32,000 bases of DNA. Origin: Nostoc punctiforme PCC 73102. Lineage in GTDB: Bacteria > Cyanobacteriota > Cyanobacteriia > Cyanobacteriales > Nostocaceae. A program made the translations under genes and the position numbers. Shown one piece after another: positions 7,576 through 30,183 of the stretch. The stretch is from NCBI RefSeq assembly GCF_000020025.1, contig NC_010628.1:5280001-5312000 (forward strand). The letters run 5' to 3'. The notes below the pieces were generated by a model that was not told the origin of the DNA, made no database searches, and saw only the letters and a list, made by a program, of their open reading frames with translations. Numbering within the stretch: position 1 is the first letter of the stretch; every line of letters begins with the position of its first letter.

Positions 7576-8559
7576 CTATTTAGGGTTAGAACTACCAAAA
7601 GCCCTCATAGCTAAGTCTTGTGCTTGTTTTAATGCAGTTTGCAATTGAGCAGAGATACCTTCTATTTGCTCAGACTGTTTTTTAATTGTTTCTTCCAAAG
7701 ATTGAATTTTTTGCTCATAACTCTGTTTGTTAGATTCCCATTCTCTCTCAAATAAATCAGCCTCAATTTTAGCTTTTTGACTTGTTTCTTTAATTGCTTC
7801 TTCTCTAGCTTTCTTTACGGCTTCTTCCAGTTCGTTAGGAAATGTAGTTACCTTTTGTTCATAGTCTGCAAACAGTGGTTGGCGTTCAGCGAATATCTTT
7901 TCTCGTTCTGCCCAATCTTTCTCTTTCTTTTGAGAATTTTCTTGTATTTCCCTTTGTTGTTGGCGTTTTACCGCTTCGTAGCTATCTGTATTGAGTTTAC
8001 GAGTAGTTTCTAACTTATATTGAGATTCTTCTTGTTCTTGCTGGCGCTCTTTGATTAATAAATCGTTATATTCTTGGAGTTTTTCTTCATACTCAGCTTG
8101 CTCTTTTTGCCATTCTTTACGCCTAGTTGTAATTTCTTTTTCTAGTGCTTCCCTTTTACTAATAGTATCTTGCTCTAAAGTTTTTAATTTTTCTTGATGT
8201 TCTTGACTTAAAATGTCTAGAGTATCCGCTACAACTCTGATTTGTTGAAGCTCTTGTAAGCGTTGAGTTTCAATTTCTATAGCTCGGTTCAATTCATCTA
8301 ACTTAGAATTTTCCTGAGCTAGTTTTTCAGATAACGCATTGAGAATACTGCCAAACTCCAATTGTAAATCAGCTAAACCTTTGACAATACTATCAACCGT
8401 ATATGTAGAAGCTGCTTGCAGAATTTCTTGACTTTTTGCCTTGTCTGCTTCCTCTTGTTTGGTTGCTATTTTAGATTCCAGCTTTTTTCTTTGGATAATA
8501 ATTTGTTGAAATGCTTGCATTAGTTGTTGTTTGCTGTCCTTGACTCCAACTGTAGTCAT
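7576..8559 (-). CDS. Coiled-coil-rich protein (CCRP), proximal member of the tandem paralog pair; candidate ZicK (Alr4504)-like
   Basis: The ORF track gives 7576-8607. I prefer ATG at 8559 (MTTVGVKDSKQQ...) because GGGAG lies about 8 nt upstream, while the 16-aa extension (MACYPINHLPIEGSWK) has no SD. It has the same E/K/Q/L coiled-coil composition and shares blocks with 6443-7522. Confidence 0.85.
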   Translation of the reverse strand: MTTVGVKDSKQQLMQAFQQIIIQRKKLESKIATKQEEADKAKSQEILQAASTYTVDSIVKGLADLQLEFGSILNALSEKLAQENSKLDELNRAIEIETQRLQELQQIRVVADTLDILSQEHQEKLKTLEQDTISKREALEKEITTRRKEWQKEQAEYEEKLQEYNDLLIKERQQEQEESQYKLETTRKLNTDSYEAVKRQQQREIQENSQKKEKDWAEREKIFAERQPLFADYEQKVTTFPNELEEAVKKAREEAIKETSQKAKIEADLFEREWESNKQSYEQKIQSLEETIKKQSEQIEGISAQLQTALKQAQDLAMRAFGSSNPK

Positions 8560-9025
8560 CTTCCAACTCCCTTCAATAGGCAAATGATTTATTGGGTAGC
8601 AAGCCATACCAATGACTACCCTATGCAGACATCAGAGTAGCCTTTAAATCAACATTTTTCACGCAGTGTAAATACTGAAATGATTGATATAGGACACTTA
8701 GATGGTACGAATTTTCCACAGTTATGTCCTTCTATTTTTCAGGTATAGTTTTCCCTTTGGGACGTACTAGTACTTTTGTACTAAAATAAATATACTTAAC
8801 CTCATCTCTTCTTGTCAAGATAATGCTTTATATAATTGCGGCACCCAACAAAGTATTAAAAGCCGACAATCATATTAATTTAGGAGGATGATGTTGAATG
8901 TGTTACTTTTTGTAAAGAAAATCTAAAAGAATTAACCCTAGCAGAAGCGCCGTCGCACTAAGGCGAGATAATAAGTTTAATCATGCTAATTGATACAAGC
9001 ACAGTCCCAGACTTTTGTGATATCA

Positions 9026-25931: not shown

Positions 25932-26555
25932 ATGACACCAGATGAGATTGAAGCATCTATGCTCGCAGCCTTTAATGATTGTGATGCAGCAAGCTGTCCT
26001 CTCACTGACACGCAGAAACAGATTTTACTGCAAGTGGTCGAGCAAATTCAGGGGAATTCTACCTCTAAGGCATCAGATATTGCTAATCCTTTAGACGAAC
26101 TTACACCAGAGGAGTTAGAAGCATTTTTACAGTTTGTTAAAGATGAAGAACAGCGCAACCGCACTTGGAAAGTGCAATTACTTAATGACTGGCTGCTAGA
26201 AAATGACTCTGGAACAGTACAATTTATCCGGGAACGCTATGGTTTACAGTGGCTGAACCGTGTTGAGTCATGCCATTTTGATAAGTATTCTTATTTTGAG
26301 GATGCACTAAAGTTAAGAGTAGGCGATCGCATTGAAGTTTCCAATGCACTATGGGAATGGGTGCAAAAAGATGGGCCTTGTAAGCGCGAATGGTTTCCTT
26401 GTATGGTGATTAAGGTCGAGGAAATTAGCAACGGTGATGATTCCTCTACTAACTGCGTCGTCCGCTTCTTCAACGGCGCTGAGTATGAAATTCAAGGAAT
26501 CTACGAATGGAATCGCTATAACTGGCGTTGGCCGCAGAAGAGGAGTGCTGAGTAA
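25932..26555 (+). CDS. Conserved hypothetical cytoplasmic protein with an acidic N-terminal half and a Trp-rich C-terminal SH3/Tudor-like region
   Basis: 207 aa with an ATG start. The C-terminal segment LKLRVGDRIEV..WFPCMVIKVEE..VVRFFNGAEYEIQG resembles small beta-barrel (Tudor/SH3-like) folds, by inference only. Its 3' 260 nt is duplicated in decayed form at 27988-28245. Confidence 0.65.
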   Translation: MTPDEIEASMLAAFNDCDAASCPLTDTQKQILLQVVEQIQGNSTSKASDIANPLDELTPEELEAFLQFVKDEEQRNRTWKVQLLNDWLLENDSGTVQFIRERYGLQWLNRVESCHFDKYSYFEDALKLRVGDRIEVSNALWEWVQKDGPCKREWFPCMVIKVEEISNGDDSSTNCVVRFFNGAEYEIQGIYEWNRYNWRWPQKRSAE

Positions 26556-26558
26556 ATC

Positions 26559-26663
26559 TTATTGAGTCTTTGATACTCGTTAATGAGCCTTTGAACTCCA
26601 TTAATGAGCCTTTGAACTCCGTTAATGAGCCTTTGAACTCCGTTAACGAGTCTTTATGCTCTT
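26559..26663. repeat. Tandem array of five 21-nt units (consensus TTAATGAGCCTTTGAACTCCG)
   Basis: Units lie at 26559, 26580, 26601, 26622 and 26643. The three inner units are identical apart from one base. The two outer units are degenerate (TTATTGAGTCTTTGATACTCG; TTAACGAGTCTTTATGCTCTT). The array starts 4 nt after the stop codon at 26553-26555. Confidence 0.9.
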
Positions 26664-26686
26664 ATTGATGCTGTACGTTGATGAAA

Positions 26687-27889
26687 TTATTTCTTGAACA
26701 AAGCCCAAGCTAAAAACCTCTCGGTATTATATAACGCTAATTGATTGCTCACACCGTTGAAAACTGCATCAAAAGCGTGTTCTGCCCAAGGAATTTGTAG
26801 AAAAACCGCAGTATTGCCAGAGTTATGTAACCTTTCATACATTTGTCTGCCAAATCGTGCTTCCACCAAATGGTCACGACTGCCGTAAATTAATAAAGTT
26901 GGTGGTAAAGGGTGCGTCAAGTAATTTATGGGTGAAGCAATTTTATACTGATTAGGCAATTCTTCTAATGAACCACCGAGAAATGCCTTTAAAACAGCGC
27001 GGGTGTTGATAGGATCGGGAACTGGTGGCGTTTTGTATCCTTCAGGCAAGTTAACAGGCCCGTAATAGTTAATTACAGCCCGAATGGGTGGTGCATCTGG
27101 TTGATAAGCCGCTAGCATTGCTAGGTGCGCTCCCGCAGAACGTCCTATAAGCACCATACGTTCTGGATCGGCTTCATAAGTTGCTGCATTTTTGCGAATA
27201 AAATTTAAGGCTGTACGCACATCATCTAACTGAGTTGGAAACTGATATTTAGGTGCGTGTCGATAGTCGATCGCAAATACTGTATATCCCTGATGAGCGA
27301 TATATTGATTAAACTCAGAATTGGCCTGAGGGTTTCCATATTGCCAAGCTCCACCATAAATTACTACCACTGCTGGATATTTCCCTACCTGTGGGGGCTG
27401 GTAAACTTCCATTTTTAAAGGCATTACCGCAGGAGAAGCAAAAAGAATATCTTTTTGATGACGAGTTTTTCCTAATTGAATACCCCCGAAAAAATTAACT
27501 AAGTTAAAGGGATGAGTTTGCATTTTAGCCCTTACTTGGACTGGAATCTGCTCTAGATAGTCTGTTCCCAAACCTTGCTTCATTGCTTTATCCATCTGCA
27601 TTTGAGTTAGGGGAATATTCGCCAGCACCCATGCACAAATTAGCAATCCTATTGAACTAAAAATGGAAGTTAAACGCCGTATTCTATAGCGACGGATGCA
27701 GAGAAAAGAAAGCAATAAAGAGAATAAATTTAATAACAATAACCAAGGACTGACTTCTGGCGCTCCTACTGCTAGCGTGAGTAAAGACATATTTGGAGCC
27801 GGAAGAAGAATCCAAGAACTGAGAAACAGACTTGTAAAACTTAGTAAGAATACAAGCCATGAAAAAACTATTTTGGGGTTAAGAAACAT
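26687..27889 (-). CDS. Membrane-anchored alpha/beta hydrolase (esterase/lipase, Abhydrolase_3-like)
   Basis: 400 aa. The N-terminal 100 aa contains about 3 TM segments. The oxyanion region is VVVIYGGAWQYG. The nucleophile elbow is LIGRSAGAHLA (G-x-S-x-G). A late acidic/His pair (SRDHLV, WAEHAF) is compatible with a catalytic triad. Confidence 0.8.
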   Translation of the reverse strand: MFLNPKIVFSWLVFLLSFTSLFLSSWILLPAPNMSLLTLAVGAPEVSPWLLLLNLFSLLLSFLCIRRYRIRRLTSIFSSIGLLICAWVLANIPLTQMQMDKAMKQGLGTDYLEQIPVQVRAKMQTHPFNLVNFFGGIQLGKTRHQKDILFASPAVMPLKMEVYQPPQVGKYPAVVVIYGGAWQYGNPQANSEFNQYIAHQGYTVFAIDYRHAPKYQFPTQLDDVRTALNFIRKNAATYEADPERMVLIGRSAGAHLAMLAAYQPDAPPIRAVINYYGPVNLPEGYKTPPVPDPINTRAVLKAFLGGSLEELPNQYKIASPINYLTHPLPPTLLIYGSRDHLVEARFGRQMYERLHNSGNTAVFLQIPWAEHAFDAVFNGVSNQLALYNTERFLAWALFKK

Positions 27890-27987
27890 ATATCAAATAG
27901 CAGTAATAACGACTCGAAAAAAGTACACTTTATCTGCCAACGCTGCGGTTTCAATAGTTAAATCATGTCGAATCATATTACTTTTAC

Positions 27988-28245
27988 TTTGAGGATGTAC
28001 TAAAGCTGAGATTAGGCGATCGCATTCAAGTTTTTAATGCAGTGTAGGAATGAGTACTATAAGATGAACCCTTTGGGCGGGAATGGTTTGCCTGAATGTT
28101 TCTTCAGGTTACTGAAATTAGCGATCGCGATGGTTCCTCTATCAATTGCCTCGTCTGCTTATACAACGGCGCTGAGTAAGGAATTCAAGGCATCTACGAA
28201 TAAAATCACTACAATTAGTGCTGGTTGCAGAAGTAGTGAGGGCAT
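27988..28245 (+). pseudogene. Decayed duplicate of the 3' end of gene 25932-26555
   Basis: By-eye alignment with 26295-26552. Shared blocks are TTTGAGGATG(c/t)ACTAAAG, TAGGCGATCGCATT, GAATGGTTT, GAAATTAGC, TTCCTCTA, CAACGGCGCTGAGTA, GAATTCAAGG, ATCTACGAAT and GCAGAAG. I estimate roughly 70 percent identity. In-frame stops are present (TAG at about 28036 and others). Confidence 0.7.
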
Positions 28246-28308
28246 GATCTTAACGAATAATTATTAAAAAGTACATCCTTTGCCCTTCACAATTTTTTCT
28301 GAGTGCTG

Positions 28309-28794
28309 CTAATCCCTAATGATTTCAATTCTAAGATTGGGTAATCCTTCTACTGTGCTAAGGTCGGTAACGTCTGTATCTCCTATAAATAATTCCGTAA
28401 GATTAGGAAGGTTAGCAAGTGGACTAAGGTCGCTGATAGGTGTATTTGGATGGAATAAACTATTACGTTCAAATGGCATTTCCAATGTACCTAAATATAG
28501 TTTACGTAAGTTTTTAAGATTAACAAGAGGACTGAAATCACTAATCTCATCTTCAAGAATATTTAAGCTTTCTAAATTAGTAAGGTTAGTTAGTAAACCT
28601 AAATCGCTGATACCTATTGTCACTAGACTAAGAGTAGTAAGCTGAGTCAGGGTCTTTAGAAATTGACAATCTATAGCTTTATTTTTATTAAAAATTCCCA
28701 AGCTAACTAAATTTGACATCTTCACTAAAGGACTCAAATCTCTTATTTCAGTTTGATCTAAAATAAGGCTAGAGAGACTAGAAAGATTGCACAA
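28309..28794 (-). CDS. Leucine-rich repeat (LRR) protein, probably a 5'-truncated gene remnant
   Basis: About seven 22-residue LRRs of the LxxLxxLxLxxxxIxDLSPL type (LSSLILDQTEIRDLSPLVKMSNL; LESLNILEDEISDFSPLVNLKNL; LTELFIGDTDVTDLSTVEGLPNL). The track start is TTG. The frame stays open with LRR-like sequence up to 28866 and contains no ATG or GTG. Confidence 0.6.
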   Translation of the reverse strand: MCNLSSLSSLILDQTEIRDLSPLVKMSNLVSLGIFNKNKAIDCQFLKTLTQLTTLSLVTIGISDLGLLTNLTNLESLNILEDEISDFSPLVNLKNLRKLYLGTLEMPFERNSLFHPNTPISDLSPLANLPNLTELFIGDTDVTDLSTVEGLPNLRIEIIRD

Positions 28795-29295
28795 TTGGCT
28801 AATGTCATTAATTTTAATACCACTTAAGTCTAGATAAGTCAGATTAGAAAGAAACCATAAGTATAATTACAAAATATTATTTAATTTTCAATGTAATTTA
28901 TACAAAGCTGAATTAAACTTTTTTCGCCATAACTTAAGAACAAATTAAGCAATACGATGTGTTATTTATTGCTGGGCAACGACATAGCACTAAAATGCAG
29001 ACCCAAACTAAGGTATGGTTTTGGAAAGTAAATTAATACTTGATGGATAATATTTATCCAAGTGGTGATGCCTATAGACAAGTCGCTTCTCTACAAGACG
29101 CTGTGCGGAGGCATCGTCGCATTTACTCTCTGCCCAAAAGTGTACATAAACCAGAAACAGAAGTATTATTAAACACTTCTGTTGATGAAAGCACGATCAA
29201 TATTCTTACTTGAATCGTGCCCCAGCACCCAAATAATTTGGCGTAACCTGAAAGCCAGAAATGCTAGAGAAGCGGTGTATGAGTTTTGGAATACC

Positions 29296-30183
29296 TTATT
29301 TCCCTAAACCAAGTTGATTTAGTAAAGCTTGGCGCATCACTTCTACAGGTATATTTTCCTGCTGCAACCAAATTTTTAATGCTGCTACCCCTTGCTGGAC
29401 TAGCATTTCTAAGCCATCGATCGCAATTGCACCTTGTTTTTGAGCAAGCTCTAGAAATTGCGTCGGTTTAGGGATATATATTAAATCGTAAGCGATCGCA
29501 CCCGTTGGTAAATTCGCTATTTCCTCTATACTCAAAGGCGACTCATCAACCTTGGGATACATCCCTATGGGGGTTGTGTTTACCAGCAGATTAGCTTGGG
29601 GAATTAGCTTTGAAAGTTCCTCCCATTGGTGAACTTGCAAATTTTCACTTATAGGTGAATTGCTCCAACTATCGCGGAATTCTTGTAATCTCTGCACATT
29701 CCGCCCAACAACATGAATTTTGGCAAAACCTAGTTGGTGACAACCTGCTACAACTGCTCTCGCTGCGCCACCATTACCTAAAATTACCGCTACCTTCTGA
29801 CTCCAATCTTGCTTATAGGTTGTCTGCAAAGGGGCGATAAATCCTTCTATATCTGTGTTTGTCCCCACCCATTGGTTATTTTGGCGACTAACAGTATTCA
29901 CAGCCCCTATCATTTGAGCAAGAGGGGTAATTTCTGAGAGCAGGGGCATGATTGCCTGTTTGTGCGGGATTGTAACACTAAAGCCGACAACACCAATAAC
30001 GGCAAAGCCTGCGATCGCTACTTCTAAATTCTCTGGTGCTATGGGAAAGGGAAGATAAACATAATCTAATCCTAAATTAGCAATCGCAGCATTATGCATT
30101 GCTGGCGACAGCGAATGTTCTACCGGATGTCCAATTACCCCTAGCAGTTTGGTTTTACCCGTAATCAATTTGTCATTTGCCAT
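29296..30183 (-). CDS. aroE: Shikimate 5-dehydrogenase
   Basis: 295 aa. The N-terminal signature is LLGVIGHPVEHSLSPAMHNAAI. The motif SVTIPHK is present. The NADP-binding loop is ILGNGGAARAV, followed by NTTPIGM. Confidence 0.92.
   Translation of the reverse strand: MANDKLITGKTKLLGVIGHPVEHSLSPAMHNAAIANLGLDYVYLPFPIAPENLEVAIAGFAVIGVVGFSVTIPHKQAIMPLLSEITPLAQMIGAVNTVSRQNNQWVGTNTDIEGFIAPLQTTYKQDWSQKVAVILGNGGAARAVVAGCHQLGFAKIHVVGRNVQRLQEFRDSWSNSPISENLQVHQWEELSKLIPQANLLVNTTPIGMYPKVDESPLSIEEIANLPTGAIAYDLIYIPKPTQFLELAQKQGAIAIDGLEMLVQQGVAALKIWLQQENIPVEVMRQALLNQLGLGK

Follow-up and report, generated by a model that had tools for sequence, protein, structure and literature searches.

A decayed second copy of a gene 3' end beside a conserved esterase gene in Nostoc punctiforme is the footprint of a past rearrangement

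Organization of the locus

The window analysed here is a stretch of 32,000 nucleotides from Nostoc punctiforme PCC 73102 (NC_010628.1, positions 5,280,001 to 5,312,000), and all coordinates below are window positions. Within it, a conserved hypothetical gene, which we call geneA, lies convergent to an esterase gene, on the far side of which are a second, decayed version of the geneA 3' end and aroE. We refer to the duplicated segment inside geneA as copy A and to its displaced counterpart as copy B. The features are as follows:

25932–26555, plus strand: geneA, an intact conserved hypothetical gene (ORF, 207 aa), parent of the duplicated segment
26202–26575, plus strand: copy A, the duplicated segment within geneA, from about codon 91 to the stop plus about 20 nt (blastn, alignments)
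26559–26655, no strand: 21-nt tandem array (TTAATGAGCCTTTGAACTCCG), 4.6 copies (TRF), in the geneA–esterase spacer
26687–27889, minus strand: predicted esterase/lipase of 400 aa (ORF), with about 100 hydrophobic N-terminal residues and a BD-FAE / Abhydrolase_3 (hormone-sensitive-lipase-like) domain
27890–27907, no strand: 18-nt junction from the esterase start codon to the first geneA-like base
27890–27961, minus strand: 72-nt block adjoining the esterase start, candidate promoter and 5' UTR, mostly the antisense strand of copy B
27908–28262, plus strand: copy B, a 5'-truncated, disabled copy of geneA codons 91 (approximately) to 203 with about 20 nt of 3' flank (alignments)
27927–27954, minus strand: sigma-70-like motif TTGAAA-16-TAAAGT (consensus scan), reading TTGCCA-17-TAAATT in most relatives
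28309–28794, minus strand: leucine-rich-repeat ORF without an ATG start, probably a fragment, which parts copy B from aroE
29296–30183, minus strand: aroE (shikimate dehydrogenase; Pfam), apparently the ancestral convergent neighbour of geneA

The geneA product, 203 aa long in most relatives and 207 aa in the window, had no Pfam family, no NCBIfam family and no relative of solved structure. Its 998 homologues, as far as they were listed, were all from Nostocales. Compared with a functional orthologue, geneA showed 7, 5 and 32 differences at first, second and third codon positions, thus mainly at third positions. The 21-nt array occupies the same place in relatives with 1 to at least 12 copies, and the contig of Nostoc sp. 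UCD121 ends inside it. The geneA–esterase spacer measures merely 23–27 nt in some genomes, and the idea of an integron cassette with an attC site after the ORF was dropped for this reason. The leucine-rich-repeat ORF was found between copy B and aroE only in the window genome and in locus L071, where the leucine-rich-repeat array is longer.

The 3' end of geneA is present twice

A first-pass annotation, made by eye, had reported that the 3' end of geneA reappears in the same orientation at about 70% identity with identical blocks of 8–15 bases, and that only the tandem array and the minus-strand esterase gene lie between the copies. Formal alignment bore this out and lengthened the repeat: positions 26202–26540 and 27908–28233 matched on the same strand with 72.6% identity over 339 columns, including 13 gap positions (blastn, E 2e-53), and the longest exact block was 15 nt. 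The start of the repeat is about 90 nt further upstream than the 26295/27988 first given, and by eye the alignment seems to extend about 20 nt beyond the stop codon, to roughly 26575/28262. In a comparison with shuffled controls, the Smith-Waterman score of 224 far exceeded those of 500 dinucleotide shuffles (mean 19.3, s.d. 2.4, maximum 31; z about 87). Copies A and B are a direct repeat, and chance similarity is ruled out by the blastn E-value and the shuffle test.

Copy B is a dead gene fragment

Copy B lacks codons 1–90 and a start, but its homology to the parent is evident at the protein level (58% over 98 aa, tblastn E 1e-31) and the ancestral stop position is kept as a TAG after ...PQK. 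The stops and frame disruption suspected at first sight proved to be eight premature in-frame stops, one 1-nt frameshift and one 12-nt in-frame deletion. Its changes relative to geneA are spread over all codon positions (19, 23 and 33), and its GC content has dropped from 44% to 40%, which is the window average. With homology to its parent, a disabled frame and a neutral pattern of change, copy B is a dead gene-fragment pseudogene. A functional second paralog is excluded by the stops, the frameshift and the lack of codons 1–90 in every genome, and no intact second geneA paralog was found at the copy B site in the related genomes examined.

Copy B is widespread in Nostoc and erodes neutrally

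Many Nostoc loci have orthologous B remnants immediately 5' of the esterase ATG, with 417 nt at 83% identity in L071, 215 nt in L056, L057 and L068, and less in others. Remnants of different genomes have stop codons in common, and their parsimony ancestor already contained at least six stops and was 80.8% identical to the Nostoc geneA consensus. In the geneA tree, the B copies formed a clade with 100% bootstrap. It lay outside the crown clade of Nostoc geneA sequences and close to NIES-4103 and Halotia (78% and 54% bootstrap), the exact node being unreliable because of long-branch effects. B-to-B divergence between genomes was close to the divergence at four-fold sites of the esterase. These comparisons show that copy B is old and that the event behind it is ancient, at the level of the genus, and not recent.

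The decay of copy B is neutral, with substitutions at all positions, a rate like that of four-fold sites and lineage-specific indels. The 12-nt deletion occurs in the window only, L040 and L070 carry insertions of about 170–190 nt, and MITE-like insertions are among the erosion events. A deletion in L043, L056, L057 and L068 joins B to the aroE flank, and the distal two-thirds of B have been deleted in most lineages. The 72 nt adjoining the esterase are a possible exception to this reading as a neutral relic.

It is highly improbable that copy B as a whole has been maintained for something it does itself, whether by encoding a small protein, acting as a non-coding RNA or regulating geneA in antisense. 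Such a role would fit a 76-aa ORF in another frame at 28037–28267, and the identity of B between the window and its relatives (0.83–0.87), which is slightly above that of esterase four-fold sites (0.78–0.82). However, the distal two-thirds are lost in most lineages and interrupted by insertions in others, and the reconstructed ancestor has stops in its alternative frames. The Rfam search in and around copy B gave no match to it, the sole hit, a sub-threshold one to a trypanosome snoRNA model, falling within the 21-nt array and being regarded as noise. Moreover, identity to geneA of about 72% with exact runs of at most 15 nt is poor for antisense pairing.

Copy B resembles known bacterial gene-fragment pseudogenes in its 5' truncation, direct orientation, missing start, stops and indels, and also in its substitutions at all positions, relaxed composition and progressive, lineage-specific erosion. 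It differs from them in having persisted genus-wide instead of being quickly deleted, and in that its esterase-proximal 72 nt were apparently shielded from deletion.

The esterase is a conserved Nostocales gene

The gene at 26687–27889 is predicted to encode a BD-FAE / Abhydrolase_3 esterase, as its product matched BD-FAE (PF20434, 6e-45, 153.8 bits, cut-off 26.8) and Abhydrolase_3 (PF07859, 1e-27, 97.4 bits) and contains a GRSAG nucleophile motif of the GxSxG type (residue 249) as well as a GGAW motif of the oxyanion type (residue 179). All matches to NCBIfam HSL-type and equivalog models were below their cut-offs, so no specific substrate can be assigned.

The bracketed position had been taken to mark the esterase as accessory, a view that the comparison of genomes did not sustain. 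The gene is convergent to geneA in 64 of the 75 informative species-level Nostoc loci and is also found at the geneA site in Halotia, CENA357 and an uncultured relative (L093). The identity of its orthologues falls smoothly over Nostocales, from 94% to 61%, following taxonomy. All-site identity (0.915) exceeds four-fold-site identity (0.822), indicating purifying selection. The esterase is best described, from its distribution and divergence, as a conserved and seemingly vertically inherited Nostocales gene and not a recent accessory insert. In Trichormus and Cylindrospermum it occupies another locus, after an FA_hydroxylase/SDR gene. No geneA-like sequence was found at the other esterase locus in Trichormus, Cylindrospermum and Tolypothrix, and the 5' and 3' flanks of the esterase in these genera showed no similarity to the Nostoc junctions.

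Origin of the arrangement

A search of related genomes for geneA without the esterase yielded two empty sites, in Nostoc sp. UHCC 0302 and Desmonostoc vinosum (L086 and L089), where geneA is followed directly by aroE. In the window, the esterase is flanked by a direct duplication of its target with one copy intact. With these empty sites at hand and no intact second paralog among the genomes examined, the arrangement is the footprint of a past rearrangement, as the first-pass annotation had proposed.

Copy B is probably what remains of a single, old duplicative rearrangement that took place in the ancestry of today's Nostoc. Before that event, geneA would have been convergent to aroE. The esterase, placed elsewhere in some other genera, would have come between the two on the aroE strand, bringing no more than about 18 nt of 5' flank with it. 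It would then have been bracketed by two copies of the last 340 nt or so of geneA, each with about 20 nt of flank. The upstream one, still joined to the geneA 5' half, would have stayed functional, and the downstream one, without a start or 5' half, would have decayed neutrally through stops, a frameshift, deletions, MITE-like insertions and relaxation of its GC content. The mechanism with the fewest steps would be an insertion, templated or illegitimate, that left a target duplication around it. It may have come about by MMBIR-type template switching during replication, by a one-sided insertion anchored in homology, or by a single crossover of the Campbell type with a circle that carried the esterase and the 3' part of geneA.

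MMBIR/FoSTeS, homology-facilitated illegitimate recombination (HFIR) and Campbell-type single crossover all make insertions flanked by target duplications. The locus is like their products in that a single event would give both the insert and a direct target duplication of several hundred bases with one gene copy truncated. In contrast to such cases, it is too decayed to demonstrate junction microhomology or a donor, and the resemblance is structural only. Because of this decay, no microhomology could be recovered at the junctions. The spacer after copy B was also compared with the geneA–aroE spacer of the empty-site genomes, with the aim of telling which geneA copy is the original. Only the coding parts aligned, the spacers being too diverged.

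The first-pass annotation had offered two histories, both of which fit the structure taken alone. According to one, geneA was tandemly duplicated and an esterase segment later took the place of the second copy's 5' half and of the spacer between the copies; in a variant considered here, a block of the geneA 3' part plus the esterase was duplicated in tandem and the second esterase then deleted. This course would give the same final structure, and it would accommodate Halotia, CENA357 and L093, which have geneA and the esterase adjacent and in which no trace of copy B was found, if the esterase was there before the duplication. We nevertheless consider it unlikely. It requires two or more events whose ends must all fall at exact places, the boundary at codon 91 is the same in every B-bearing genome, and among the 94 loci there is neither a longer second copy, reaching upstream of about codon 91, nor any leftover of another esterase. 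Missing remnants only weaken this history, which has no positive evidence of its own. In the three relatives without copy B, either B is younger than the adjacency or it has been erased. In a small tree from concatenated flanks (332 aa of shared columns; a topology without support values and not decisive), UHCC 0302 was sister to crown Nostoc and Halotia branched further out, so that loss or a second gain would be needed.

According to the other history, an integrase-type island or cassette had the geneA 3' end as its target site and supplied a replacement for it, with the esterase as accessory cargo. Integrative elements such as tRNA- and tmRNA-targeting islands and prophages insert into gene 3' ends and restore those ends, and the locus shares their topology of an intact target, a cargo and a displaced 3' end in the same orientation, with empty sites in relatives. 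Yet there is no integrase or transposase in the bracket or among the 17 window ORFs scanned with Pfam (several ORFs at about 9–21 kb lay outside the scan), and ARAGORN found no tRNA or tmRNA in the window. The repeat is 340–360 nt or so of a protein-coding gene, ten times the length of an att site and well beyond the size of att cores, and a short repeat of the att type is absent. The cargo is a single promoterless ORF, a conserved housekeeping-type gene with a vertical-looking gradient over Nostocales that is fixed in most of the genus. In a mosaic test, the 5' and 3' halves of geneA ranked the outgroups alike, giving no signal of an imported 3' end. The rearrangement itself stands, and an integrating element as its agent is very unlikely.

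A candidate promoter in the esterase-proximal part of copy B

In the single duplicative event, the esterase would have arrived with an upstream stretch of its own of only about 18 nt. The 72-nt block next to its start codon keeps at least 60 nt in 34 of 63 loci, and in most Nostoc loci it has survived, also where the remainder of B has been deleted. Its boundary clusters at -72, beyond which more than ten different upstream sequences are found. The sigma-70-like motif in the block matches the consensus at 9 of 12 positions, and across 28 genomes the columns of the -35- and -10-like boxes show conservation of 90% or more. Functional geneA already has the -10-like TAAATT on its antisense strand, and changes in copy B, including a TGG-to-TAG stop, turn CTGTAA into the -35-like TTGCCA.

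On these grounds, we tentatively suggest that part of the dead geneA fragment, the 72 nt closest to the esterase, may have been exapted as the promoter and 5' UTR of that gene, a possibility to which we give less than even weight. The antisense strand of geneA would have offered the -10-like box, and the same TGG-to-TAG change that killed the frame would, among other mutations, have created the -35 box. The upstream junctions, more than ten and seemingly from independent deletions or rearrangements, would stop within a few bases of that box because the block now serves the esterase, which is a secondary inference. Against this, the identity of the aligned block (74 nt, 0.822) equals that of the four-fold sites (0.822), a neutral proxy, and the consensus scan found three sites in the region where 4.8 were expected, without excess over shuffles. 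Instead, the esterase could be expressed by read-through from aroE, which shares its strand.

Promoters are known to be born from non-promoter DNA by exaptation of pseudogene or antisense sequence. The pre-existing TAAATT and the mutational gain of TTGCCA recall such cases; the neutral overall substitution rate of the block sets it apart from them.

Significance

The locus by itself is an ordinary case of little consequence, and it is a well-preserved record of an old gene relocation in a bacterial chromosome. It corrects the view of the esterase as a mobile accessory gene. The putative promoter, if true, would be a datable and genus-wide case, clean and easily testable, of a promoter that arose from a pseudogene fragment on its antisense strand. 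The graded erosion of copy B over about 60 Nostoc genomes provides a natural series for deletion bias and neutral decay rates, and the 3' flank of geneA, as a recurrent synteny breakpoint, may help in the comparison of Nostocales genomes.

The 3' end of geneA is repeated upstream of the esterase start

The features concerned are the following.

25932-26555, plus strand: geneA, an intact conserved hypothetical gene; the duplicated segment inside it is copy A
26559-26655: 21-nt tandem array between the two copies
26687-27889, minus strand: esterase gene, 400 aa, with a BD-FAE/Abhydrolase_3 domain, a GRSAG motif and a hydrophobic N-terminus
27908-28262, plus strand: copy B, a disabled, 5'-truncated copy of geneA
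28309-29295 region, minus strand: leucine-rich-repeat (LRR) ORF
29296-30183, minus strand: aroE

The repeat of the geneA 3' end reported in the first-pass annotation is real and longer than was given there. With blastn, 26202-26540 matched 27908-28233 on the same strand at 72.6% identity over 339 columns (E 2e-53), as was also seen in a MAFFT view, and the local-alignment score was 224 against 19.3 ± 2.4 (maximum 31) in 500 dinucleotide shuffles. Alignment with orthologous copies suggests that the similarity runs about 20 nt past the stop codon, and blastn found no further geneA copy within the window. Copy B matches residues ~91-203 of the geneA product, which is 207 aa long; its reading frame is broken by 8 premature stops and a 1-nt frameshift, and 12 nt have been lost from it in frame. 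Between the esterase start codon and the first base resembling geneA there are just 18 nt. The HIP1 palindrome GCGATCGC, present at 29 sites in the 32-kb window, is found at equivalent positions of copies A and B (26323 and 28016), and copy B has gained a second at 28121.

No relatives of geneA were found in Pfam, NCBIfam or the PDB. Despite this it is a conserved gene with ~1000 homologues, those listed coming in every case from Nostocales. Its product has 207 aa in the window, in Nostoc sp. UCD121 and at the related locus L078, and 203 aa in most relatives. Because copy B keeps the ancestral TAG stop right behind ...PQK (26538-26555 versus 28233-28245), the 4 extra codons of the live gene are derived.

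Copy B is an ancient, neutrally decaying pseudogene

We compared 80 Nostoc loci, one genome per species, of which 75 had enough sequence downstream of geneA. The esterase is convergent to geneA, as in the window, in 64 of these 75, and many of them carry copy-B remnants immediately upstream of the esterase start. The remaining 11 have unrelated genes 3' of geneA, one of them (L059) retaining a 28-residue esterase remnant.

Copy-B remnants in Nostoc loci
L071: full length, 417 nt, 83% identity to the window
L056, L057, L068: 215 nt
L043: 173 nt
L040, L070: pieces split by ~170-190-nt insertions
About 25 further loci: only the ~72 esterase-proximal nt

The insertions in L070 (about 8474-8661) and L040 (about 8443-8615) are two different sequences. 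The former terminates in inverted repeats, AAGGGACTTCCAA ... TTGGAAGTCCCT, suggestive of a miniature transposable element; the latter is rich in C runs and G runs.

The geneA position at which the B copies start is the same in all of them, and they have disabling changes in common, for example TGG to TAG in '...LQW...'; the window alone has the 12-nt deletion and the frameshift. Their parsimony ancestor already contained at least 6 stops and matched the Nostoc geneA consensus at 80.8% identity, and in a neighbour-joining tree they grouped together with 100% support, outside the clade of crown Nostoc geneA sequences. Copy B thus dates back at least to the radiation of the Nostoc species sampled.

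Differences between copy B and the geneA consensus were distributed 19/23/33 over the three codon positions, against 7/5/32 for a functional orthologue. GC→AT changes outnumbered AT→GC changes (38 vs 26), and GC content had fallen from 44% to 40%, the window mean. Identity among B copies (0.83-0.87 in comparisons with the window) lay near the four-fold-site identity of the esterase (0.78-0.82). Judged on these substitution patterns, copy B evolves neutrally. The feature is an ancient truncated duplicate pseudogene of the ordinary kind.

The esterase is a conserved gene that changed its place

Esterase homologues, ~400 aa in nearly all cases, show an identity gradient from 94-83% in Nostoc through ~78-80% in Halotia, CENA, Trichormus and Cylindrospermum and ~70% in Tolypothrix to 61-66% in Calothrix, Rivularia and Scytonema. 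The gene occupies another locus, after an FA_hydroxylase/SDR gene, in Trichormus variabilis and Cylindrospermum stagnale, and yet another in Tolypothrix; none of these three loci contains geneA-like sequence. The esterase was thus relocated within a vertically evolving lineage, and the gradient together with the other Nostocales loci rules out imported foreign cargo. Within Nostoc, its all-site identity exceeds the four-fold value (0.915 vs 0.822), indicating purifying selection. The view that the repeat marks the esterase as accessory or mobile does not hold, given this selection, the smooth gradient and its presence in 64 of 75 loci.

Order of events and mechanism

The window lies on the chromosome. 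In it, geneA ends a run of an amine-oxidase-type oxidoreductase, upp, an Ssl2009-like gene, yggT and a 143-aa hypothetical gene, syntenic in Calothrix PCC 7507, Nostoc PCC 7524, Nodularia, Halotia, NIES-4103 and others. In Desmonostoc vinosum a hydantoinase A/B pair is inserted between the 143-aa hypothetical gene and geneA (L089 2553-6826), a further local rearrangement within the otherwise conserved run. The 3' flank, examined downstream of geneA in L081, L083, L084, L088, L063, L047, L017 and L049, is a recurrent synteny breakpoint, while the upstream side stays syntenic. The 3' neighbour is a peptidase S8 gene in Calothrix 7507, DAHP synthase in PCC 7524, a PAS kinase plus regulator in Nodularia and a CHAT/TPR protein in NIES-4103; several esterase-less Nostoc loci have unrelated ORFs without family assignment there.

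Across species, the length of the geneA-esterase spacer varies between 23 and about 1340 nt. Its 21-nt array is a variable-number repeat, whose copy number at this site in related Nostoc genomes runs from 1 to at least 12 (window 26559-26655, L001 6428-6660, L003, L006, L014, L036 and L045 compared), and the UCD121 contig ends inside it, probably an assembly break. The LRR ORF has no ATG, its frame being open upstream to a stop, and looks like a piece of some longer LRR gene; the ~500 nt between it and aroE are non-coding. LRR sequence occurs at the corresponding position only in L071, as a longer array.

In Nostoc sp. UHCC 0302 and Desmonostoc vinosum, geneA is followed directly by aroE (gaps of 161 and 89 nt), and in Nodularia the kinase/regulator pair lies between them. 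These empty sites and the Nodularia layout make convergent geneA and aroE the likely ancestral state, with the spacer as a recurrent rearrangement site. Together with the repeat and its pseudogene copy, the empty sites bear out the footprint of a past rearrangement first proposed for this locus.

In Halotia, CENA357 and an uncultured relative, geneA is convergent with the esterase, the genes beyond are different ones, and copy B is absent. The geneA-esterase adjacency is possibly older than copy B; it is also possible that the insertion created copy B and that these lineages lost it afterwards, as happened in several lineages of crown Nostoc. By a three-point distance calculation on the parsimony-ancestor data, the origin of copy B falls near the Nostoc-Halotia split, a result in keeping with insertion and later loss; a small flank tree and the geneA gene tree were weak on the order. 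The 5' and 3' halves of geneA ranked the outgroups alike and so give no indication of an imported working 3' end.

The structure A5'-A3'-X-A3'-spacer would be the product of one insertion flanked by target duplication. Template switching during replication, homology-anchored illegitimate recombination and Campbell-type crossover of a circle carrying X plus A3' can each yield it. Tandem duplication followed by replacement or deletion reaches the same structure, and the heavily decayed junctions leave the two routes indistinguishable. A dedicated integrating element is the least likely source: it would have left no recombinase (no integrase or transposase among 17 window ORFs screened, several ORFs at ~9-21 kb lying outside the screen) and no tRNA in the window, its repeat would be ~340 nt, and its 'cargo' is a single conserved gene, now fixed.

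A candidate promoter within copy B

Since the esterase brought almost no upstream sequence, its driver lies either in copy B or in read-through, the alternative being transcription from aroE and the LRR fragment on the same strand. Inside copy B, a -35/-10-like pair (TTGAAA-16-TAAAGT; TTGCCA-17-TAAATT in most relatives) lies on the minus strand at 27954-27927. The -10-like hexamer was already on the antisense strand of functional geneA, and the -35-like box arose in copy B through changes that include a stop-creating one. The proximal block is kept over ≥60 nt in 34 of 63 loci and over ≥100 nt in only 7 of 63; its boundary clusters at -72, beyond which more than ten unrelated upstream sequences follow, and every motif column is conserved at 90% or more. 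In one Nostoc group (L062, L065, L078, L055, L027 and L029), the 72-nt block borders on runs of short heptamer-type tandem repeats (CTGACTC / CTGAATT); these lie about 75-115 nt before the esterase ATG and take the place of the remainder of copy B. Two results count against a promoter role: overall identity of the block equals the four-fold-site value (0.822), and a consensus scan found no excess of promoter-like sites in the region over shuffles. Part of copy B may now serve as the esterase promoter, an exaptation that we consider conceivable and somewhat doubtful, and it is the only part of the feature worth an experiment.
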